Virus record (IMG/VR): IMGVR_UViG_3300027628_000010
Location: 1 to 64,000 of that record
DNA from: a virus
Taxonomy: Duplodnaviria > Caudoviricetes
Strand: one strand, 5' to 3'
Length of the DNA: 64,000 nucleotides
Of this stretch, positions 3,201 through 19,710 are shown in pieces; the stretch's first letter is position 1; the number at the start of each line of letters is the position of its first letter. Both the position numbers and the translations under genes were made by a program. The notes under the pieces are model-generated. The model saw only the letters and a program-made list of their open reading frames with translations, did not search any database and had not been told where the DNA came from.

Positions 3201-3404
3201 TATACTCAAATCACGCCGGATGAGTTCGCTGGGTATTGGAAAGACGGTAACGGGACCTTCCAGAAGGTATTCTACTTAAATGGAGATGAGACCGTTTCTA
3301 CCAAACTGAGGGCGCAACAAGAGATCACAATGGGAAGTGTTAAAGTCCTAAACATTAACTCTGGAGGATATAACGGATGGGCTTTTGTATCTAACAAGGA
3401 GTAA
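255..3404 (+). CDS. Tail fibre / tail protein with carbohydrate-binding-like modules
   Basis: 1049 aa, TTG start after GGGAG; ATASVTLIDMND N-terminus and two GxNLxxNS-type galactose-binding-like modules; tail gene context. Confidence 0.75.
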   Translation: MPKRVATASVTLIDMNDITSSPVQPTNPTDGMIWMDTSSSPYKFYVYRASTGKFEPTGPINLEQLDPDAAQQVEDAYNGVNDLGADNKLTRYERAVVRGDLATIVGKFLLSTESMPNLAAIDAGGVGEAYSIRKAARDIGMSTSNTAYVNFGNAYTALNTYLSGLNPKAWDITSTATNTIVPADWEAAWNEYKLRLNLLNVEIQNRQQDYADSVGEGSVQDAIEAVSASDQYETKTLTNPVTITSPIASVALPEFEGAHADGWEIVGRNLVMNSSFANGKTGWTGQTSSYTVLPAEDDKPNSPIVQVVKSGATTNGYLSLFSNYFTAATGDEITASVDIKIANIAAYDEAAPFFIEFYDATNTRVQYKNVYLSDMGLSGLLSGTWYRVSYKLKATTANIVSARVRLDLVKNGDVSYREVKAERNTSVGTYTIAPEESIGSLGNRIVPVTAPSFTSAATLTINGAFYGDGTDNDTFSWNTQGQAVKVKKWEDVNLDGSLNWAFHSDYGGFKGVKVVGYFTTVVDASVKAAKHNGNYLSTILTGLSTADQIIGRNSDSTLYITLADADTGWGDSYTPTTDEIKAYFNGWKMCNGTFGSPYTGTGNKVWHPIGDKDLNRSTAVSSGGGMSYNPVPTEESIAIKEQAINKYQLVYRLVDPVQEIVPYEGILPLIKGDNSISVSYPAGTPAIVKGSIRYALNLATVTDILKYIVPVLQKRLSNAEEVIKDDSIVNTVMNSVEYTFAMKEKLGQDDIKDFVTGDEVDEKVKNGLDSLDFSPYVTSTELEQTATNITAKFSATGGMNLLKNSVGFAGRDFWNDYSSTGKVVDTISNNELDTLGFGSGFQFNADGNQKGIYQFVNVIPGQPYTLSWYLNKRTGGSDSTYRFFIQVQENGNTTTQIADNSADTTVGYAANYFTFTPTTSQVNIRFIAYGSVDATLTGAMLTIGDVALQWSLATGEIYNTNIRMDIKGIRVSQLDANRKETGYTQITPDEFAGYWKDGNGTFQKVFYLNGDETVSTKLRAQQEITMGSVKVLNINSGGYNGWAFVSNKE

Positions 3405-3412
3405 CAAATATG

Positions 3413-3458
3413 GCACGTATTGTTTGTATGTTATAATAGAGATACAAACAATATGTGC
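3413..3458 (+). promoter_or_regulatory. 17-bp inverted repeat with a TGTTATAAT promoter element at the arm/loop junction and in the loop
   Basis: GCACGTATTGTTTGTAT-GTTATAATAGAG-ATACAAACAATATGTGC. Confidence 0.6.
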
Positions 3459-3508
3459 TCTTTCTATATTAAGATTAAAGACAACTTTTGAAATGGAGGA
3501 ATACACTT

Positions 3509-9373: not shown

Positions 9374-10420
9374 ATGCGACTTAAACGTATGTCAGAAATT
9401 TATTCTCGTCTAGTAGACTTCACAATTACGAACACCAATGAGTTAAATGACTTCTCTGTAGGTAGTGCTCTTAGAGCCATGTATGAGGCTTTCTCCATCG
9501 AGTTAGAGCAATACTATGTATTGACTAGGGAGAACATGACAGAGGCTATAGAACAGGGCGTATACGGCTCATTCAGCTTCGATAGAAAGAAAGCAGTTAA
9601 ATCTTACGGAAATGTTCAAGTGAGATTCCATAGCTCTACTCAGGATGATATGATTTTATCTAGGGGCTCTCGATTCAGCTCTAGCTTAGCAACATATCCA
9701 CAAGTGTATGTTACTCAAGTAGATTATCTTATCCCTAAAGGAAGTATTATGGCAGAGTTCGAAGTACACTGTGTAACGGCTGGTAGCGTAGGAAATATTC
9801 CTGCTAACGTACTAGATATTATGCAGTCCCCTATTGCTAACGTACAATCGGTTACTAACCCTGCTGCATTCCAGACAGGACAGGACCAAGAGCCTTTAGA
9901 GGAGCAACGTTCTCGTTTTGCATCCTTTATCAAGTCTTTAAGTCGAGGAACTATCCCGGCTATTGAATATGGGGCAAGAACTGTGGATGAAGTATCTGGA
10001 GTATTTATCGAAGAGGAAACGGGACGTATTAATGTATACGCTCATGACCGTAATGGTAATTTACCAGATGCAGTTAAAGCTAAAATCGATACAGCTATGT
10101 TTGAGTATCGTCCGGGTGGAATCCCAGTACGAATTTTCCCTGTAACTCGTAGAGCAGTCGATGTAACCGTAACAGTAACGCTCACAAATAAAGCAGCTAT
10201 TACAGAAACATTTAAGAAAAGAATTGCTGAAGAGATTTCAAGATATCTGAATAACATGAAAACTTCTCAAAGCCTTGTATTATCAGACCTATCGAGTGTA
10301 ATCAAATACATTGACAGACAGCTTATCTACGATGTACAGTTTCAAAATTTAAACGGCAATGTAAATCTACTTGGCTCTGAAGTAATTCGAGCAGGTACTG
10401 TAACAGTGACACTACAATAG
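9374..10420 (+). CDS. Baseplate J-like wedge protein
   Basis: 348 aa; DFSVGS, VHCVTAGSVGN, GQDQEPLEEQRSRF motifs. Confidence 0.85.
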   Translation: MRLKRMSEIYSRLVDFTITNTNELNDFSVGSALRAMYEAFSIELEQYYVLTRENMTEAIEQGVYGSFSFDRKKAVKSYGNVQVRFHSSTQDDMILSRGSRFSSSLATYPQVYVTQVDYLIPKGSIMAEFEVHCVTAGSVGNIPANVLDIMQSPIANVQSVTNPAAFQTGQDQEPLEEQRSRFASFIKSLSRGTIPAIEYGARTVDEVSGVFIEEETGRINVYAHDRNGNLPDAVKAKIDTAMFEYRPGGIPVRIFPVTRRAVDVTVTVTLTNKAAITETFKKRIAEEISRYLNNMKTSQSLVLSDLSSVIKYIDRQLIYDVQFQNLNGNVNLLGSEVIRAGTVTVTLQ

Positions 10421-10435: not shown

Positions 10436-10960
10436 ATGTCATTTTTAAAGCATTTACTTCCGGGATGGCGTAGAAGTATGGAAGATAAATCAAAAGCCAA
10501 TGCAGCCATTCTAGATGCCTTAGACAGGGAGTTACAGAGTACAGAGCAGGATACAATCGAAACAAAGGCTCTACTGTCTCTTGACTCCTCTTCTGAGGAG
10601 TGGCTAGATCAGTACGGAAAACTATTTGGAGTAATGAGACAGGATAACGAAGCAGACGCAAACTATCGACAACGTATCAAAGACTATATGGTTCTTCGTA
10701 GAGGGAGTATCCCAGCAATCATTGACGCTATCCGATCTTTCCTACAGGATTATGAATCAGACATAGAAATTTACGAGCCTTATACGAATGTATTTATCTT
10801 AGGGCAATCTAAATTAAGCGGTCCCGATCATTTTCTAGGGGAATACTACACAGTAGCAGTTATCGATGTTAAATTCTCTCAACCATTCCCAGAGGGGATT
10901 ATCGATATTATTAACGAGTTTAAGCCGGCAGGTGTAACCGTACATGTATCAAGATCGTAG
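10436..10960 (+). CDS. Baseplate wedge protein (P2 gpI-like), short form
   Basis: WLDQYGKLFGVMR..NE.DANYRQRI...RRGS...INEFKPAGV, after baseplate J. Confidence 0.75.
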   Translation: MSFLKHLLPGWRRSMEDKSKANAAILDALDRELQSTEQDTIETKALLSLDSSSEEWLDQYGKLFGVMRQDNEADANYRQRIKDYMVLRRGSIPAIIDAIRSFLQDYESDIEIYEPYTNVFILGQSKLSGPDHFLGEYYTVAVIDVKFSQPFPEGIIDIINEFKPAGVTVHVSRS

Positions 10961-10984
10961 GAGCCATTAACAAGGCTCCTTTTT
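10959..10984 (+). terminator. Intrinsic terminator
   Basis: AGGAGCC-ATTAACAA-GGCTCCT followed by TTTT. Confidence 0.65.
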
Positions 10985-11018
10985 ATTGTATGGTATAATA
11001 AAGTTATGAACTAGGTAC

Positions 11019-11028
11019 TGTTATATTA
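11019..11028 (+). promoter_or_regulatory. Putative late promoter TGTTATATTA
   Basis: Exact match to the late-promoter consensus reported for Twort/K-like phages; upstream of a structural gene. Confidence 0.65.
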
Positions 11029-11059
11029 GTAATATACATAAACGAAGGAGTGGAACGAA

Positions 11060-14000
11060 TTGGCAGAAGTGAACTTAAATGAACCTCCATACAATGATCG
11101 ATTTGACCCGGAGAAAAACTATAATAAAATTCTATTTAAACCAGATACAGCATTGCAACCTTCAGAACTAAATGAGATGCAATCAATTAAAGATAATGAC
11201 TTACGACAACTTGGAGACAGCATCTTCTCAGATGGAGCTATGCAAACAGGTATGTCTTTCTCAATTGATTCAACTGCAAAGACATTGACTGTTGAAGATG
11301 GGCGTGTATATCTAGCAGGTAAAATCCGTGAATTTAAAAAGCAATCTATTCCATTTACAAGTGTAGGAAATGAAAAGATCGGTGTTAAAGTAATGCAGAC
11401 TATCGTTACATCGGACGATGATGAGACATTATTAGACCCTTCTCAGAACACACCTAACTATTTATCAGAAGGTGCAGACCGTTTGGTAGAAACTGTAGCA
11501 CTTACAATCAATGACGATAGCTCTCCTACTATTTACGAATTTAACGATGGGGCGCTATTCGTAGAACCAGCTCGACCAGAATTTACAATGATTAACGATG
11601 TATTGGCACAACGTACATACGAAGAATCCGGCTCTTACCAAGTAGAAGGATTTAAAATGTGGACAGAGAAAAGCCAAGACAATACGAAAGTAGATTTAGT
11701 CATTGACCGAGGAATTGGTTACGTACTAGGTTACCGTATTTCTAAACCTACGTCTACTCGTATTCCATTAAACAAATCTACAGAGTTTAAAAACGTTGCT
11801 CAAGAAACATATTCATATGATACAAACGTTCGTAAGAACCAAATCAGCAGCGCATACGTAAAAGAAGTTAAGCAAGTAATGGCACGTACTCTAAGCCCTA
11901 CAGGTGGAGTTACAATGGCTAAAGGTAGTGCAGGTGGACGAGATGGCTTACCAGCCCAATACACAAGCGTAGACCCTTCTACAGCTATCCTTTGGACTAC
12001 TTCTCCAGAAGTTTACTACACATACGGAGCAGACTTTACACTGATTGAAGACAGCGGAGTAATGTATGTAAACTGGGACACAGGCTTAAATGGTAAAGAA
12101 CCTGCTACAGGTACTTCATACAAATTATCATTTGAGTATGACCGTGTAATGCAGAACAACGTAGATTACAAAGTTACTTCAGTTCCGATCGATGGAGTGG
12201 CTGGCTGGACTACAACAGTAGATTTTAACGGATTATCTGGACTTAAGCCAAAAGATAAAAGTTTAGTTCGTGTAAGTTACGACTACTACTTAGCTCGAGC
12301 AGATATTATCACACTTAATAGTGCTGGACAATTTACAGTTATCCAAGGGCAACCAGACCGTTCTAGCTTAGTTCAAGCACCAGATCATCATGACCCATTG
12401 ACATTGAAAATTGGAGAGGTATTTGTTTACCCTAACTCAGATTCAGCTACAGCTTTAAATAACGGTGTATTCCGCCTAACAATGCCACAGCTTGCTAACA
12501 TTAAAGACCGTTTAGAAAACGTAGAATATAACCAAGCTATCGAGGCATTAGAGAACAAAGCTATTGTAACAGATGACCCATTAAACCTACGTGGAGTATT
12601 TGCAGACGGTTTCGTTGACTTCTCTCGTATGGACCTTAACCTTTCTTCAGTAGCAATGTCATTTGATGATGCTAGCATCACGCTACAGGTTAATGCTCCG
12701 GCAGATCAGATGAGAGCGCCAGAGTTTTCTAGTAACGCTTCAGTAGCTGCATCTTGGGGAAGACTTATCACAGCCCCATACACAGAGGTTAAAGAGATTA
12801 CACAGCCATTAGCAACAGAGGCTATGAACATTAACCCGTATGCAGTTTACAATAAGCTAGGAGTGCTTAAGCTATCTCCGGGAGCCGATAACTGGATTGA
12901 AGAAACTAAGGTTACCGTAAATAGAGAAACAACAGAAACAGTTCGTATGGACCGCTGGTGGGCACACGGTAGACAAACTTCATACTACAAAGACCTTCGT
13001 AAGTATGTAGATAATGTCGAGCTAGACGGAAATCAAAGCTGGGATATGGGATTAGGTTATCAATACGATCTTAAGAACGGACGTACTGGTACTCTTACAG
13101 ACGTAGCTACAACAGTCCGAAATACAGCGATTGAATTTATTCGTCAACGTGATATTACATTTGCTGCTAGTAATCTACAGCCAATGTCTAATAACTTGTA
13201 CTTGACTTTTGACGGTATGCGTATTCCTGTAACTCCTACTGGCTCCACTGTAAAAGGTGCAGAGACAGGGACGATTATGGCTAATGCAGCTGGTCAAGCA
13301 ACAGGTAAATTCACCATTCCAGCAGGTGTTCGTACAGGTATCCGTGAGGTAACTTTACAGAATGCTAGCAATATGGCTATCGCTACGTATACGGCTCAAG
13401 GGACATTGAAATCTACTGAAGAGGTTATTACAAAGACTCGAGTAACAATCAACCTGTATGACCCATTAGCTCAGTCATTTGTATTCCCACAAGATCGTGT
13501 AGTAACAAGCTTTGACGTATTCTTTGCTTCTAAGTCTACTACAGATAACATTATCATTCAAGTACGTGGATTATCAGAAGGTGGATTCCCGAACCAAACG
13601 GTATACGCAGAACGCATACTAACTCCTGCACAAGTTAAGACATCGGCAAATGCTTCTGTAGCAACAAAGGTAGCATTAGATGACCCGTTAATGTGTAAGG
13701 CTGGTCAAAGTTACGCTCTGGTAATGATTACAGACAGTAACGACTACACAGCTTGGATTAGTACGCTAGGACAAAACCGAGTAGATGCTCCAACACAAAA
13801 GGTAGTTTCTCAGCCTTACGTTAACGGTGTATTATTCAGTTCTTCTAATGCTCGTACATGGACAGTTCACCAAGAATCGGACCTTAAGTTTAATGTATAC
13901 ACAGCGCTGTTTAATGAAGATGCTGTAGTAGAGTTTAACTCAATGACCGATCTTAACTCTGATATGTTGCTGTTAATGGCTACTTACTTAACACCTGCAA

Positions 14001-14548
14001 ACACAGGATGTAAGTGGGAAATCAAGACGGTACCTAAATCGGATGTAGGGACTATATCTATCGATAGTGTTCCGTGGCAGCCGCTAGTAAACTACTTGGA
14101 GCAAACGACAGCAGGGACAGTTATCGGACTAGTTAAGCTTCGTGCAACATTCAAAGCTAATCGATATATCTCTCCAATGCTTACACTGGAAGATTTAACG
14201 TTTGTTAACTTCATTTCAGAAACGAGCGGAGACTACGTGTCACTAAATATCGATTCATCCGATGCACCATTCAATACGGTAACAATGTCTTACGATGCTT
14301 CATTGCCTGCTGGTACAACGGTAACGCCTAAGTACTCCCTAGATGGAGGACAGACATGGAACTCGTTCACTGCGGCTCCTACAGTGTCTGTACAGTCTAC
14401 AGAGTTTAGTCGCTATACGTTTACTAAGCAAGTTTCAACTACAGCTGTAAATAAGCAGCTTAAAGTTAAATTGGAACTTCGAGCAGATAATCGCTTCGTT
14501 CGACCACGGGTACGAAGATTTACAACTGTATTCAAAAATGAAGTTTAA
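11060..14548 (+). CDS. Large baseplate/adsorption protein (DUF4815-like)
   Basis: 1162 aa; NLNEPPYNDRFDP...ILFKP...LQPSELNEMQS; PLAQSF; size and position match the conserved Herelleviridae adsorption protein. Confidence 0.85.
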   Translation: MAEVNLNEPPYNDRFDPEKNYNKILFKPDTALQPSELNEMQSIKDNDLRQLGDSIFSDGAMQTGMSFSIDSTAKTLTVEDGRVYLAGKIREFKKQSIPFTSVGNEKIGVKVMQTIVTSDDDETLLDPSQNTPNYLSEGADRLVETVALTINDDSSPTIYEFNDGALFVEPARPEFTMINDVLAQRTYEESGSYQVEGFKMWTEKSQDNTKVDLVIDRGIGYVLGYRISKPTSTRIPLNKSTEFKNVAQETYSYDTNVRKNQISSAYVKEVKQVMARTLSPTGGVTMAKGSAGGRDGLPAQYTSVDPSTAILWTTSPEVYYTYGADFTLIEDSGVMYVNWDTGLNGKEPATGTSYKLSFEYDRVMQNNVDYKVTSVPIDGVAGWTTTVDFNGLSGLKPKDKSLVRVSYDYYLARADIITLNSAGQFTVIQGQPDRSSLVQAPDHHDPLTLKIGEVFVYPNSDSATALNNGVFRLTMPQLANIKDRLENVEYNQAIEALENKAIVTDDPLNLRGVFADGFVDFSRMDLNLSSVAMSFDDASITLQVNAPADQMRAPEFSSNASVAASWGRLITAPYTEVKEITQPLATEAMNINPYAVYNKLGVLKLSPGADNWIEETKVTVNRETTETVRMDRWWAHGRQTSYYKDLRKYVDNVELDGNQSWDMGLGYQYDLKNGRTGTLTDVATTVRNTAIEFIRQRDITFAASNLQPMSNNLYLTFDGMRIPVTPTGSTVKGAETGTIMANAAGQATGKFTIPAGVRTGIREVTLQNASNMAIATYTAQGTLKSTEEVITKTRVTINLYDPLAQSFVFPQDRVVTSFDVFFASKSTTDNIIIQVRGLSEGGFPNQTVYAERILTPAQVKTSANASVATKVALDDPLMCKAGQSYALVMITDSNDYTAWISTLGQNRVDAPTQKVVSQPYVNGVLFSSSNARTWTVHQESDLKFNVYTALFNEDAVVEFNSMTDLNSDMLLLMATYLTPANTGCKWEIKTVPKSDVGTISIDSVPWQPLVNYLEQTTAGTVIGLVKLRATFKANRYISPMLTLEDLTFVNFISETSGDYVSLNIDSSDAPFNTVTMSYDASLPAGTTVTPKYSLDGGQTWNSFTAAPTVSVQSTEFSRYTFTKQVSTTAVNKQLKVKLELRADNRFVRPRVRRFTTVFKNEV

Positions 14549-14561
14549 GGAGTGGAACTAA

Positions 14562-14729
14562 ATGCCATTAGAGAAACGTGACCCGAGCTCTAAAGCACGG
14601 TTGTTTATTCCTACACAAAGAGAAAGGTCTCTGGTAGAATCTCAGAGACTTCTTAAAGAAAATCTAGCAGACGTAGAAGCTTTGAAAAAAGAGTTACAGG
14701 ATTTACTAGATAAAGCAAAAAAGAAGTAA
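14562..14729 (+). CDS. Small conserved baseplate-associated protein (55 aa; missing from ORF track)
   Basis: ATG 14562 after GGAGTGG; MPLEKRDPSSKARLFIPT...KAKKK*; same position as the ~52-aa gene after the adsorption protein in relatives. Confidence 0.75.
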   Translation: MPLEKRDPSSKARLFIPTQRERSLVESQRLLKENLADVEALKKELQDLLDKAKKK

Positions 14730-14798
14730 CTTTGGCTATATTATAGGGGAGAGAAATCTTCCCTATTTTTATTTATTTAAAGGATTGGAGGCAACATA

Positions 14799-15761
14799 AT
14801 GGGAAACGTACCCCTATTTAGAGATGACATATACCAGAATATGAAGGACCTTGCACCGCAACTTGCCCAAGACCTTGCAGCCCTAGAGTTACGTGTACAA
14901 AAAACTGAGAATCAGCAAGGGGCAGCAGTTAAAGAGATTTCATTAACAGGAGATAATACAAAGAGTACACCTGTACTGAATATCCTTTCTACTAGTACAA
15001 CCAAACAAGGAATCTTCGTAAAGCAGCAGGCTACAGGGACTGTTACTACACATGCGCTAACTGCGTACCAAGCCTCTTTAGCTGGGGATGCTTCAGCTAT
15101 TAACGCTGTATCAGACAACCCAACTTTCTCTGCTGTACAGATTACAGGTAAAGAGTTAGATAAAGGTACTCTGAAGATAGCTCACGTAGGTATGGCAAAT
15201 GGTACAGATGCAGCGGCAGCCGCTATCTCTATCGATTTAAAGACAGCAGGTACAGCAGCTCAAGGTATCTTCATTACAGCCACGCAAGGAGCTACTACAG
15301 GGAATCTACTTACAATCCGTAACAATGGACGAGAGGACCTTGTACTAAAGGCTAACGGTCGATTAGGATTAGGTATGGCAACGGGCGGAACGCCAAGCGG
15401 AGTACTAGAACTAGTGCAGCCAGACGATACAGTTCCGGGTCTAGTCATTAAAGGACGCACGAACGGAACTAACTTAATAGAGTTCCGCAGACCTAGTGAC
15501 GGTGCTACTCGTACCCGTGTAACAAACACAGGGCAATTTGTGACTCAAGAAACAGCTTACTATACAGGTAATGGTATAATGGTAGGAGGGTCTAGTGCTC
15601 AGTTTGGTGGTGGTAGTGTAGGTATTATCGGTATTACAAACGCTACAACTATTCCAAATACTAACCCTACTGGCGGTATTGTAATGTATGTAGAAGGTGA
15701 CGTACTTAAATACAGAAAGCCAGACGGAACTATTGTTACACTAAATGGCGCAACAGCATAA
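14799..15761 (+). CDS. Tailspike with phage hyaluronate-lyase-like (HylP, triple-stranded beta-helix) domain
   Basis: SAINAVSDNPTFSAVQITGKELDKGTLKIAH...AAAAISID...GTAAQGIFI...TTGNLLTIRN matches remembered HylP SALNITSANEGGSAMQIRGVEKALGTLKITH...NAAALSID...GTAAQGIYI...TTGKLLRIRN. Confidence 0.75.
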   Translation: MGNVPLFRDDIYQNMKDLAPQLAQDLAALELRVQKTENQQGAAVKEISLTGDNTKSTPVLNILSTSTTKQGIFVKQQATGTVTTHALTAYQASLAGDASAINAVSDNPTFSAVQITGKELDKGTLKIAHVGMANGTDAAAAAISIDLKTAGTAAQGIFITATQGATTGNLLTIRNNGREDLVLKANGRLGLGMATGGTPSGVLELVQPDDTVPGLVIKGRTNGTNLIEFRRPSDGATRTRVTNTGQFVTQETAYYTGNGIMVGGSSAQFGGGSVGIIGITNATTIPNTNPTGGIVMYVEGDVLKYRKPDGTIVTLNGATA

Positions 15762-15777
15762 CGGAGGGAAATATAAA

Positions 15778-15933
15778 ATGGAATTAAACTTTAAGCTTAG
15801 TCAAGTAGAGGCGCAGCAGATTTTAAATGTGTTAGCAAAACAACCATACGATCAGGTGTTTGAAGTTATCGGAAAAATCCAACAACAAGCAAATGAACAA
15901 ATCCAAGAAAAGGTAGAGACTGAAGAAAAGTAA
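15778..15933 (+). CDS. Small helical protein, possible fibre chaperone (51 aa)
   Basis: ATG 15778 after GGAGGG; lies between two RBP genes. Confidence 0.6.
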   Translation: MELNFKLSQVEAQQILNVLAKQPYDQVFEVIGKIQQQANEQIQEKVETEEK

Positions 15934-16000
15934 CGTTCTTCAGCTATATTAAAGGGAGAGCAATCTCCCTATTTTTATATTATAGATTGGAGGCAACAAA

Positions 16001-18148
16001 ATGTCAAATAAACCTCTTGATAGAGATAATATGTATTTTAACTTAAATGACCCAACAAGCGATATAATTCAAGCAATCGTAGAGACACAAAAAGATGTCA
16101 AAGACCTTAAAGGGTTAGGACTAGGTAATATTGATTTTGGCGCTTATGCTAAAACAGCTGATGTAGATAAAAAAGCGGATAAATCTACTGTAGGTAACCC
16201 TGTTAGTATGTTAAGCTCTTTTACCTTCGCCTCTGTTGAAGATTGGTTAAATGAGTTAGAGAGACGTTTAGCTGCTAATACTGTAGACCCTATGAGTAAG
16301 AAATACATGGCATCTGGTTCATTAAATGTCTATGCAGGTTCCATTGTTAATAATAGCAATAAGCTTACGATCACTACAAGCTCTCACGATTTCAAAGTCG
16401 GGCATGGTATCGCTATCCGTACAAACGATGGAGCTAAAGAAGTAGAGACTGTAAAAGTAACAGCTGGAGCAACAACTAGCGGAGATGTTACTCTCAAGTT
16501 AGATGGAGTTACACTAACAATTACTGTAGCAGCAGGAGATACAGCTATTCAGGTAGCAGATAAAATCCGCAATGTAGCTAACAATGGTAATGGAGGTACA
16601 GTCACTCAAACTCTTTCTGGTACTGGGTGGAGTGTAGATACTAATGCGACAGGTTCAACAGATACATTAACATTTACTCACGCTAACCAAGGGGTAAAAA
16701 CTAAAGCTACATTTAGTGCAGGCTCTACAGGCGTAGCAGCTACTGTAACTGTAACAACAGCAGGAGCTAACATCTCAGAGTTTATTTCTAAGATCACAGC
16801 AATTAACGGTACTCAGTTTACTCTTAGAGATACATACACAGGAGCTAACTTAGCCAGTAAACGATTAGAACATGATGATGACGAAGCGATCAACAATGCA
16901 ATTTCTGATGCAGCTGACAACTACGGAACTGGAGCTATTGGTGGAGTAGTTTCTCTACCAGCTTATAGATTCCCTATTCGTCAAACCAAAATTAAGCCCC
17001 GTGTTATGTTTAAAGGTACTGGGTATGGCTCACGCCTATGGCAAAGAGGAAACACAAATAAAGATGCTCTTGTCCTGAATACAACTAGTGACGAGATGTG
17101 TATTGTAAGTGATATTTCTATAGACGGACAGAAAAACTCACAATCTTCTGGTCGAGGTATTAAAGTGGATAATACGGGTGGAAGTGGATTCTCTTTCTAT
17201 GACCCTCTTCACGTAATCAATAATGTACTTATTATGAACACTAAAGGTGACGGGTTCGTTATGGGGGGAACTAGGGAAGCTCGAGTAACTAATGTGTTTG
17301 TATTCCAAGCAGACGGTCATGGTTTCCAGTTAACTTCTACAGATTGTTTCTTCACAAACTGTACGTCCGCAGGAGCAGGAATGAATGGGTTTAACCTGAA
17401 TGCACCTAACACTCGTTTTACATCTTGTAAAGCGTATGGCTCAGGTAGACTTGAAGCTAGTACCTCTGGAGATGGATTTTTAATCGGCGGTACTCGACAG
17501 TTACTTACTAACTGTGAAGCGCAGGATAACGGAAGACACGGTTTCGATTTATATGGCAGTACTGCAAACCGTGTAGTTAACTGTTTAGCTGATTCTAATG
17601 GTAATAGATTCACTGGTAATTCTGCTGGATTCTCATTTGGTGGAGGTTCGACATACAATGTAGTGGAGGGTACAGCACTTAACCGTACTAACTACCAATA
17701 CCAGAAGTACGCATTATCAATCAACAGTGATTGTACAAACAACAAAGTTGACTTAGTTAGCCCGAGCGGAACAGACATTGCTAATAAAAATGGAGACATT
17801 TACCCGGGACAAGGTGCAGGTAACACAATTGTTATCAATAACTTGCTAGGTAACCAAAGTATAGCTTATGCTGCTACTATTACTCCAGCTGTGTACGATG
17901 GAGGCACAGTGTTCATCACTTTAACAGGTAACGTTACGATTGCTAACACGGTAAATGGACGTTATCATCCGGGAGCAGTAATGCGACTTGTTTTAACTCA
18001 AGATGCTACAGGAGGGCGTACAATATCTTTCGGTAGCCAGTATAAAACAAACTGGACTCCTGATACAACAGCCGGAAAAGTAAATGTCATCGAGTTCATC
18101 CACAACGGAACAAACTGGGTACAAATTGCAGCTACGGTAGGTATTTAA
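16001..18148 (+). CDS. Tailspike / depolymerase with right-handed beta-helix (pectate-lyase-3-like)
   Basis: DDDEAINNAI...GGVVSLP entry motif, repeated GxG-F / NC.A beta-helix rungs, C-terminal TLTGNVTI...LTQDATGGRTISF domain. Confidence 0.8.
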   Translation: MSNKPLDRDNMYFNLNDPTSDIIQAIVETQKDVKDLKGLGLGNIDFGAYAKTADVDKKADKSTVGNPVSMLSSFTFASVEDWLNELERRLAANTVDPMSKKYMASGSLNVYAGSIVNNSNKLTITTSSHDFKVGHGIAIRTNDGAKEVETVKVTAGATTSGDVTLKLDGVTLTITVAAGDTAIQVADKIRNVANNGNGGTVTQTLSGTGWSVDTNATGSTDTLTFTHANQGVKTKATFSAGSTGVAATVTVTTAGANISEFISKITAINGTQFTLRDTYTGANLASKRLEHDDDEAINNAISDAADNYGTGAIGGVVSLPAYRFPIRQTKIKPRVMFKGTGYGSRLWQRGNTNKDALVLNTTSDEMCIVSDISIDGQKNSQSSGRGIKVDNTGGSGFSFYDPLHVINNVLIMNTKGDGFVMGGTREARVTNVFVFQADGHGFQLTSTDCFFTNCTSAGAGMNGFNLNAPNTRFTSCKAYGSGRLEASTSGDGFLIGGTRQLLTNCEAQDNGRHGFDLYGSTANRVVNCLADSNGNRFTGNSAGFSFGGGSTYNVVEGTALNRTNYQYQKYALSINSDCTNNKVDLVSPSGTDIANKNGDIYPGQGAGNTIVINNLLGNQSIAYAATITPAVYDGGTVFITLTGNVTIANTVNGRYHPGAVMRLVLTQDATGGRTISFGSQYKTNWTPDTTAGKVNVIEFIHNGTNWVQIAATVGI

Positions 18149-18153
18149 CATAG

Positions 18154-18175
18154 AGGCATCCGAAAGGGTGCCTTA
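18154..18175 (+). terminator. GAAA-loop hairpin (terminator or processing site)
   Basis: AGGCATCC-GAAA-GGGTGCCT; short T tail. Confidence 0.5.
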
Positions 18176-18211
18176 TCTATTATAGTCTAAACACAGATCG
18201 GAGGAAAATTA

Positions 18212-19453
18212 ATGTCAAATCCATTTAGAGATATTTTATACGGGAATATTGAGGACCCTACTCTTAAATTAGCGAAGTTAGAAGGAATCCTTTTAGGGTT
18301 GACACAGCAAGCCGCAACAACTGATATGCCTAGCGGAGAGATTAACGTAAAGAGCCCTCCTATCCCTATGGTAGGCTTAAAAGGTAATGGTGTTGAAGAG
18401 GGGGAAGCTATTAAAACACTTTTAAATAGTATCTCAACTAACTACACTAAAGCAACTGTTCGATTCCCTTATGGAACGTACAAGAGTAACCAAGGGCTTG
18501 TTTTACCTAATAACCTGAATGTACTTGGACAGAATTTATCAAAACTTGACTTTTCTGGTGCCCCTTCTGACGTGGTAGCTATTAAACGCTCTGGTTCCCG
18601 TGCTCGATTTGAGGATTTCGAAATCGTTGGAAATGGGTTTAATGATGGAATTAAAGTAGGTAAGTCATCTATTGGACTAGATGTATATGGAGATCACCAC
18701 GTCTTTAAGAATTTACTTATTAAAGATTTTGAAACTCTTATAGACATTGCTCACACGGCAACATACTTGAACGGGTTCGAGGATATTTTCCTAGCTAATA
18801 GTACCTATTGTCTGTATGCTGATCTTGCAGCACGAAACGCTACAAACGCAGGAGAACGTATCACATTTAAACGTACAACATTCTGTAACAGTAAACTTTG
18901 TGTACGTGCTGAGCTATCTGCTCTTGACATCTATTTTGAGGGTTGCTCATTCGATTACAGTTCTGAATTACTGAACGTAGGTAATGGTATTTATTCGTTT
19001 ACAAATTGCCATTTTGAAAACACTATCAACAACCCGAACCGTGGTTCTCAATCACTGAATGATTGGTTTGTTACTACAACAAGCGGAGCTAGCTTACTAT
19101 TTACAAATTGTCTGTTTGACCTATACGGAATGAAAGCAATTATCAATCCAAACTCTTCACTAGGTACGGCGATCTTCAAGAACTGCCGAGCATACTTCCT
19201 AGCAGGAGACGGGACAAATAAGAACTTACACAGTGAACATCCTGTATATGTTGATATTAACAAATCAGCAGTTAGTATTTATAGTCCATATGTTTCTAAG
19301 ATTACGTATGCTACTGTGTTAGGTGCAACGAACACTGACAAGAAACAGATTCCACTTGACATTACGGTAGCAACTGACCTAGTAAATTATAAATACGATG
19401 TAACATTTGCTACACCTACAGCTGAACGTACATGGATTAAAGTCATGTATTAA
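18212..19453 (+). CDS. Tailspike / receptor-binding protein with pectin-lyase-like beta-helix
   Basis: GNGVEEGEAIKTLL...VRFPYGTYK; repeated F.NC.F rungs. Confidence 0.7.
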   Translation: MSNPFRDILYGNIEDPTLKLAKLEGILLGLTQQAATTDMPSGEINVKSPPIPMVGLKGNGVEEGEAIKTLLNSISTNYTKATVRFPYGTYKSNQGLVLPNNLNVLGQNLSKLDFSGAPSDVVAIKRSGSRARFEDFEIVGNGFNDGIKVGKSSIGLDVYGDHHVFKNLLIKDFETLIDIAHTATYLNGFEDIFLANSTYCLYADLAARNATNAGERITFKRTTFCNSKLCVRAELSALDIYFEGCSFDYSSELLNVGNGIYSFTNCHFENTINNPNRGSQSLNDWFVTTTSGASLLFTNCLFDLYGMKAIINPNSSLGTAIFKNCRAYFLAGDGTNKNLHSEHPVYVDINKSAVSIYSPYVSKITYATVLGATNTDKKQIPLDITVATDLVNYKYDVTFATPTAERTWIKVMY

Positions 19454-19480
19454 AGACATCCGAAAGGGTGTCTTTTTTTT
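19453..19480 (+). terminator. Intrinsic terminator ending the structural module
   Basis: AAGACATCC-GAAA-GGGTGTCTT followed by a long T run. Confidence 0.8.
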
Positions 19481-19710
19481 GTCCTATTTTGAACCCTTGA
19501 TACATAAGGATTCCTGACAAATTACTGCACTATTTTGTCCTATTTTATTTATGACTACTCCCTATATATTTATTAATATAATTATATATAATATCTTAAT
19601 ATTAATAGCTTATATAATATTATATAAATAATAATTAAATATATATATATAATACAGACCAACTAAAATTATAATAGGCGCATTCAGGGCTAAAATGTGA
19701 CAAAAACATT
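19477..19710. other. Candidate replication origin (AT-rich core with flanking repeats)
   Basis: 19563-19654 is ~92 bp with only 3 G/C; TTTTGTCCTATTTT at 19477 and 19533; GACAAAA inverted copy at ~19699; directly upstream of helicase/Rep genes. Confidence 0.55.

Follow-up and report, generated by a model that had tools for sequence, protein, structure and literature searches.

The window, i.e., the whole stretch of DNA analysed here, comprises 64,000 nucleotides (nt) and corresponds to positions 1 to 64,000 of the IMG/VR virus record IMGVR_UViG_3300027628_000010, a contig of 80.4 kb with an estimated completeness of ~50%. The source phage is a member of Herelleviridae (Bastillevirinae), and its nearest record was Bacillus phage vB_BmeM-Goe8 (MN043729; host B. 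megaterium DSM 319), below referred to as Goe8. Three consecutive genes of receptor-binding proteins (RBPs), designated RBP1, RBP2, and RBP3, are located in the window downstream of the genes of a tripod protein and of a small protein of 55 amino acids (aa) and upstream of a helicase gene (Table 1). The order tripod, small protein, spike, helicase is that of the canonical spike locus in B. megaterium-group phages. All three RBPs start with a similar short peptide, here called the tag. According to the best supported explanation, the tag is probably a module that docks otherwise unrelated spikes to the virion.

The N-terminal tag and its distribution

An earlier examination of the letters of this DNA (the sequence-only reading) had quoted the N-termini of the three spikes and strings upstream of their genes, and all of them were found in place. 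The core common to the window spikes was h-x-R-D-x-h-Y-x-N-h-x-D, followed by an amphipathic helix; tag and helix together measured ~35 aa and not ~20 aa, as that reading had given. In a six-frame translation of the entire contig, the pattern P[LFIVM]x0-1RDxxYxNxxD occurred three times, each at the start of one of the three RBPs. A hidden Markov model (HMM) of the tag was made from 29 tags of relatives, with zero window sequences, and 230 open reading frames (ORFs) were scored with it. The three spike ORFs were retrieved at E-values of 7.5e-19, 1.6e-8, and 2.8e-6 (residues 1–38, 1–36, and 1–23, respectively), and the next-best ORF at 0.5. A tblastn search of the phage collection with the RBP1 tag alone gave no match, so that a profile was required. 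The bodies behind the tag had been described as unrelated, and Pfam, BLASTP, and an AlphaFold2 model agreed with this, giving a HylP-like body and two different beta-helices. BLASTP similarity between RBP1 and RBP2 was confined to residues 1–34; between RBP2 and RBP3, BLASTP found none.

A profile search of the kind proposed in the sequence-only reading was performed with an alignment of eleven tags and 36 columns (A3) against 1.84 billion representative proteins (E ≤ 1e-3). Fifteen of the 16 matches occupied residues 1–42, i.e., the very N-terminal end, in proteins of 60, 77, 150, 313, 362, 495, 529, 535, 557, 567, 576, 681, 683, 716, and 1223 aa, the bodies of which were GH113, Beta_helix, pectate-lyase-like, or unassigned. 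The sixteenth, a tetratricopeptide repeat protein, was rejected as a false positive. The motif was strictly N-terminal, headed at least 15 unrelated bodies, and was present in one to five genes per related genome. Whole-genome scans revealed four tagged ORFs in Goe8 (at 71258, 42256, 135407, and 139173), five in Moonbeam, and one each in Mater, Goe3, and L019; none were found in the three B. cereus-type and two SPO1-type genomes scanned.

Approximately 35 related loci were collected via the C-terminus of the tripod protein. The gene following the 55-aa protein in these loci was either a single tagged gene, from 60 aa (Mater) to 745 aa (Moonbeam), or missing; several tagged genes at the canonical locus were seen in the window alone. 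Stubs of 60–184 aa, consisting of the tag and a coiled coil only, are kept in Mater, Goe3, and L019, which suggests a structural role for the module itself.

Alignment of 32 tags gave the common core h-x-R-D-x-h-Y-x-x-h-x-D-P and three sub-classes. Class A (PLDRDxMYxNLxD[PA]T) was found at the canonical locus, where all the single tagged genes mentioned above belong to it, and includes RBP2. Class B (LFRDNLYxxFPDPNKKIEEL), to which RBP3 is similar, was found at scattered loci adjoining tail-tube, portal, endolysin, or early genes. Class C (FRDxIYxN[IM]KDL[TA]P), the class of RBP1, was represented by a 678-aa protein of phage f2b1 and by P0113. Judged from these sequences, the three window tags, which represent sub-classes occupying different loci in relatives, may address different docking sites. 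The 'equivalent sites' of the sequence-only reading are not a given because the window spikes fall in three sub-classes.

A second, untagged spike-like gene follows the class A gene in Goe8 (L001 10916–12484) and in the related locus L009 (12527–13750). In L009 it abuts the class A gene, with start and stop overlapping by one base. This second spike may be attached via the first one or may be a free enzyme. The record of f2b1 (MN940411) names Staphylococcus aureus as the host; this label looks doubtful because the backbone and three tagged spikes are those of a B. megaterium-type Bastillevirinae phage.

Spike bodies, junctions, and breakpoints

RBP1 matched PF07212 (HylP) with 168.6 bits at a gathering threshold of 27 and PDB entry 4ufq with an E-value of 1.5e-40, and all its PDB sequence matches were HylP hyaluronidases; by these sequence matches RBP1 is a member of the HylP hyaluronidase family. 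Its closest relative (65% identity) was P59_105, a tagged protein encoded at the same, canonical locus of phage P59. An identical RBP1 is also encoded on another contig of 149 kb. Remoter HylP-like relatives, e.g., the metagenomic P0010, are devoid of the tag, and their homology to RBP1 starts from residue ~38.

P59_105 is likewise trailed by a homologue of the 51-aa gene that follows RBP1 in the window; the 51-aa product was 60% identical to P59_106 (E 5e-18) and gave no family match. This gene was always observed directly after a HylP-like spike. Its start is probably an internal ATG with its own GGAGG, and the longer ORF from 15745, overlapping the end of RBP1, is probably wrong. The product may be an assembly factor.

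RBP2 matched PF13229 (Beta_helix) with 35.8 bits (threshold 25.9). Its residues 61–715 were 69% identical to a chromosomal protein of Priestia megaterium bearing a different N-terminus, and RBP2 also shared 52% identity with the f2b1 spike of 678 aa, which has a class C tag and is encoded near the portal gene. Residues 58–413 of RBP3 were 48% identical to residues 161–517 of the tailspike of siphophage Slash, the N-terminus of which is BppU_N. The AlphaFold2 model of RBP3 was of moderate confidence, with a mean predicted local distance difference test score (pLDDT) of 61.7 and values of 65–89 over residues 60–330. With this model, Foldseek retrieved RbmB, Sf6, CBA120, and HK620 at a probability of 1.0 and a template modelling score of ~0.35; a match of RBP3 to PF12708 was below the threshold. 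Neither RBP2 nor RBP3 matched PDB sequences. By its sequence in the case of RBP2, and by its model and the homology to Slash in the case of RBP3, each is assigned a beta-helix fold.

Since the bodies of RBP2 and RBP3 stand behind other N-termini elsewhere and the homology of P0010 begins at residue ~38, the exchangeable unit begins 40–60 residues in. The view of the sequence-only reading that the shared peptide is a portable N-terminal module on swappable spikes was borne out by these foreign N-termini and by the strictly N-terminal position of the tag.

Upstream of RBP1 and RBP2, the near-copy noted before was confirmed (14735–14833 and 15943–16035; 77% identity over 99 nt, E 4e-12), and RBP3 was preceded, as had also been stated, by a looser variant only. 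The repeat reaches ~35 nt into the coding region and contains a terminator-type stem-loop. The arrangement of promoter-like box, hairpin, and ribosome-binding site between the 55-aa gene and the class A gene is kept in Goe8, L009, L010, L012, Moonbeam, Eldridge, f2b1, Goe3, and P59. Because relatives keep it, the cassette flank is regarded as an ancestral regulatory junction that was duplicated in the window. The hairpins have the properties of intrinsic terminators: a GC-rich stem-loop, a T run, and a kept structure, with stems that vary yet pair in Goe8, Moonbeam, Eldridge, Goe3, and P59. The Moonbeam record annotates this hairpin as a terminator, and the junction hairpins are considered putative terminators. 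Near-identical hairpins at 18151–18174 and 19451–19474 (CATCCGAAAGGGTG core, 88% identity over 24 nt) flank RBP3, as though this cassette had entered through duplication of the last terminator.

The box, GYTATATTA, had six matches in the window, all on the plus strand, compared to 2.7 expected, and was present 5' of all four tagged genes of Goe8. The looser [CT]TATATTA had 11 plus-strand sites in the contig. Six of the 11, including that of the untagged tripod gene, were followed within 26–63 nt by a GGAGG-type site and a start codon; two more precede a start codon, where the search for ribosome-binding sites gave no flag. Sites shortly 5' of gene starts on the plus strand were at 3464, 6734, 7265, 11021, 14736, 15944, 49724, and 56699. 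No −35 element was seen upstream of GYTATATTA on inspection by eye of the listed sites. The box is a candidate −10-like promoter element; it resembles GATATT, the SPO1 late −10 sequence. At the spike junctions it directly abuts the hairpin, so that transcripts might begin within the stem.

Comparison with relatives located the borders of the exchanged segments. Goe8 was 92% identical to the window over 14000–14825, up to codon 9 of RBP1, where homology ends, and the same single Goe8 junction matched again at 15943–16045 (93%), up to codon 15 of RBP2. The left half of the first junction copy and the right half of the second were each 92–93% identical to this single junction. Homology to Goe8 returns at 19453, i.e., at the closing terminator, where L009 also resumes. 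P59 was colinear with the window over 14000–15900 and again from 19473, and L009 was 87% identical up to approximately codon 25 of RBP2, followed by a GH113 body. The C-termini of the tripod proteins of the window, Goe8, and L009 were 94–99% identical, with cassettes wholly different. On the sequence level, the positions of these borders agree with homologous exchange inside the junction and tag codons.

The flanks had been proposed to act as recombination handles. Their part in exchange is supported by the breakpoints with Goe8, P59, and L009, which fall in the repeated flank and the first 9–25 codons; a dedicated handle is not, as the box, the terminator hairpin, and the ribosome-binding site are also present at the junction in relatives. 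The crossover zone lies at the junction and the tag codons because both are conserved among the phages, exchange being a by-product of this conservation. Just 3' of the spike block, the stretch 19476–19593 matched, with 76% identity and inverted orientation, the DNA that precedes the gene of the 678-aa spike in f2b1 (L034, ~3302–3421).

Table 1. Coordinates of the spike locus and of neighbouring features in the window.
Feature	Position	Strand	Basis or remarks
Baseplate J	9374–10420	+	Gene order
Arm-scaffold stub, 174 aa	10436–10960	+	Homologue reduced to the wedge part
Tripod protein, DUF4815, 1162 aa	11060–14548	+	PF16075, 528.6 bits; full-length match to phage 812 tripod (PDB 9euf)
Conserved 55-aa protein	14562–14729	+	phrog_1074; 3' of the tripod gene; landmark of the canonical spike locus
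Promoter-like box GCTATATTA of RBP1	14735–14743	+	GYTATATTA match
Putative terminator-type hairpin with T run, RBP1	14743–14775 (stem-loop 14743–14766)	+	Structure kept in Moonbeam, Goe3, and P59 with other stem sequences
GGAGG ribosome-binding site of RBP1	14787–14791	+	Sequence
RBP1, 320 aa	14799–15761	+	Residues 1–36, class C tag (MGNVPLFRDDIYQNMKDLAP...); HylP-like triple-stranded beta-helix body
51-aa gene	15778–15933	+	Companion of the HylP-like spike
Second junction copy	15943–15993	+	GCTATATTA 15943–15951, hairpin 15953–15970, T run, GGAGG 15989–15993
RBP2, 715 aa	16001–18148	+	Residues 1–36, class A tag (MSNKPLDRDNMYFNLNDPT...); right-handed beta-helix body
Third junction	18153–18204	+	Hairpin 18153–18174, degenerate box CTATTATAG 18177–18185, GGAGG 18200–18204
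RBP3, 413 aa	18212–19453	+	Residues 1–30, class B-like tag (MSNPFRDILYGNIEDPT...); beta-helix body
Putative terminator closing the spike block	19452–19475	+	Near-copy of hairpin 18153–18174
Helicase	from 19810	+	Gene order, after the spike block

Possible docking sites and alternative explanations

The N-termini of RBPs attach spikes to the virion. In phage 812, segments of the arm scaffold past residue 176 are the binding sites of the tripods and of the RBP antenna domains (PMC13433997). The arm-scaffold homologue of the window phage covers residues 3–175 only, compared with 1019 aa of 812 TmpF/ORF63 and 506 aa in Moonbeam; that of Goe8 also ends at residue 174. Weak arm-scaffold homology runs on beyond the stop codon (region 10436–11060). 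The arm-segment gene (812 ORF64/A511 gp105) was found neither in the contig nor in the complete genome of Goe8; Mater, Goe3, and L014 served as positive controls. By gene content, the baseplate of the window phage and of the Goe8 lineage appears to be devoid of arms, yet the tripod gene is intact. Because Goe8 keeps four tagged spikes without arms, the docking site should be common to armed and armless relatives, being the tripod, the wedge, or a site outside the baseplate. The tripod is a candidate docking platform.

The tripod ORF starts with TTG, which is preceded by a GGAG site and, at a distance of 39 nt, by a GTTATATTA box; the tripod protein annotated in Goe8 has an identical length and N-terminus. 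The annotations of A511, Deep-Blue, and Vp4 call the 55-aa protein a putative chaperone; it was found in relatives both with and without the tag. Since it opens, like the tag, with a PLxxRD-like string, it was considered as a distant tag paralogue and rejected (hhalign probability 0.9%).

Several results weigh against the tag being a docking module. No docking partner was identified, and no features peculiar to tag-bearing phages were found in the tripod beyond phylogenetic differences. Compared with solved structures, the tag profile matched designed coiled coils only, through its helix, and no relative of the tag itself. In the AlphaFold2 monomer model the tag had a pLDDT of 30–40. A literature search gave no proteomics paper for the group. 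Moreover, the similarity of short tagged proteins to phrog_18412 ('minor head protein') and to fibritin or neck appendages makes a neck or head site possible.

This last observation leads to the explanation that survives best among the rivals, which we nevertheless consider unlikely: instead of the baseplate, the tag could bind to the neck, the head, or the tail sheath, and its carriers would then be decoration fibres or depolymerase whiskers standing by themselves. Besides the matches to phrog_18412 and to coiled-coil families of fibritins and appendages, it would suit the class B genes that adjoin tail-tube, portal, or early genes, as well as the Goe8 lineage without baseplate arms. The class A gene, however, sits after the tripod and the small protein, in the position where A511 and 812 encode their baseplate RBPs, and the PHROG labels are untested annotations.

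Slightly less probable still is a purely intramolecular role, in which the tag would be a nucleus of folding or trimerisation, an N-terminal coiled-coil cap. A helix matching designed coiled coils always follows the tag, the stub proteins consist of nothing but tag and coiled coil, and the conserved Arg, Asp, and Tyr could make inter-chain contacts. Yet the same bodies fold behind other N-termini (Slash tailspike, P. megaterium protein), HylP and beta-helix spikes are known to trimerise via their bodies, and a cap would not be limited to one lineage, nor sorted into locus-specific sub-classes.

Finally, it is very improbable that the similarity of the tags results from constraint on the DNA or the RNA (a late promoter, 5' untranslated region, and translation-initiation region held in common and reaching as far as the first codons), although the box, the hairpin, and the GATTGGAGGCAA ribosome-binding site are common to all tagged genes and the nucleotide repeat spans the start codon: conservation holds at the protein level over 35 residues, the box also stands 5' of untagged genes such as that of the tripod, and the invariant residues are written in 25 tagged genes with several synonymous codons (five for Arg, i.e., AGA, AGG, CGT, CGA, and CGG, and two each for Asp and Tyr), therefore selection acts on the protein.

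If the tag is a docking module, the first ~35 residues would form a portable attachment unit, consisting of a peptide in which Arg, Asp, and Tyr are invariant and Asn nearly so, and of a subsequent amphipathic, probably coiled-coil helix. By this unit, trimeric spikes would be anchored to some conserved virion component, and the chain past residue ~40–60 would be an exchangeable enzymatic or receptor-binding body. The B. megaterium-group phages have one class A gene at the canonical locus and class B or C genes as separate units elsewhere. In the window, two extra tagged spikes have moved into the canonical locus: upstream, the P59-type HylP cassette with the 51-aa gene, and downstream, the spike sharing its body with Slash. 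Each cassette opens with the same regulatory junction, made up of the promoter-like GYTATATTA, a terminator-type hairpin, and GGAGG, and homologous recombination at the conserved junction and tag codons probably joins new bodies to the backbone.

Comparison with known systems and significance

Conserved N-terminal peptides or domains attach interchangeable spikes in K1-5/SP6, KP32-type, G7C, and CBA120 phages (PMC6872550). Short peptides of this kind are the hepta- and undecapeptides of K1-5/K1E/SP6 and ~29 aa in the second RBP of KP32 group A; the Menlow and PhiK64-1 groups also belong here (PMC6872550). The sequence-only reading knew of no description of the present motif, and we found no paper on it, but short N-terminal RBP peptides (7, 11, and ~29 aa) as such are known from K1-5/SP6 and KP32-type phages (PMC6872550). 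The principle of swapping is thus already known, and the tag, most likely an attachment peptide, adds a new instance of it from phages that infect Gram-positive bacteria.

As in K1-5, SP6, and KP32, a short conserved N-terminus is carried by unrelated enzymatic spikes, several per phage, the exchange of which changes host range. The present tag, however, has no similarity in sequence to those peptides, occurs in Herelleviridae myophages infecting Gram-positive hosts, and includes a coiled-coil helix; moreover, the tagged genes are dispersed through the genome, and a promoter-like box of its own precedes each of them. Pfam and PHROG scans of baseplate J, the scaffold stub, the tripod, the 55-aa protein, and the spikes named no adapter or T4gp10-like domain. 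CBA120 (Ackermannviridae; TSP1–4) and G7C (gp63.1/gp66) similarly hold several depolymerase spikes by conserved N-terminal parts. There, however, these parts are folded domains of ~100–250 aa with spike-on-spike branching, whereas here they comprise ~35 aa and no branching domain was seen.

Phage 812 (Kayvirus) and A511 belong to the same family and share with the window phage a full-length tripod homologue and the position of the RBP gene after the tripod. In contrast, the window spikes gave no sequence match to RBP1 or RBP2 of 812, and both this phage and Goe8 are without the arm-segment protein and the arm portion of the scaffold, which bind the 812 RBPs. Goe8 itself has a backbone 92–93% identical up to codon 9–15 of the first spike and the same junction and class A tag; its locus, however, comprises one tagged and one untagged gene, with three class B genes elsewhere, as opposed to three tagged genes in tandem in the window.

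Host range is far less understood for phages of Gram-positive bacteria than for coliphages and Klebsiella phages. A short, sequence-defined tag that heads all spikes of a phage group and is cleanly separable from the body provides a simple rule for finding genes of RBPs and depolymerases anywhere in these genomes, and the boundary between tag and body is a defined fusion point for the engineering of Bacillus phages. In the armless lineage, the question of how spike and tripod are attached becomes directly testable in Goe8. It is conceivable, though doubtful, that the RDxxY tag is a general plug-in address by which three to five unrelated depolymerase spikes are loaded onto a Herelleviridae virion lacking arms of the 812/A511 type, with classes A, B, and C addressing distinct sites or competing for one and giving mixed virions. 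If true, this would mean an undescribed attachment platform on the tripod or wedge and a handle of ~35 aa for mounting foreign spikes on Bacillus phages.

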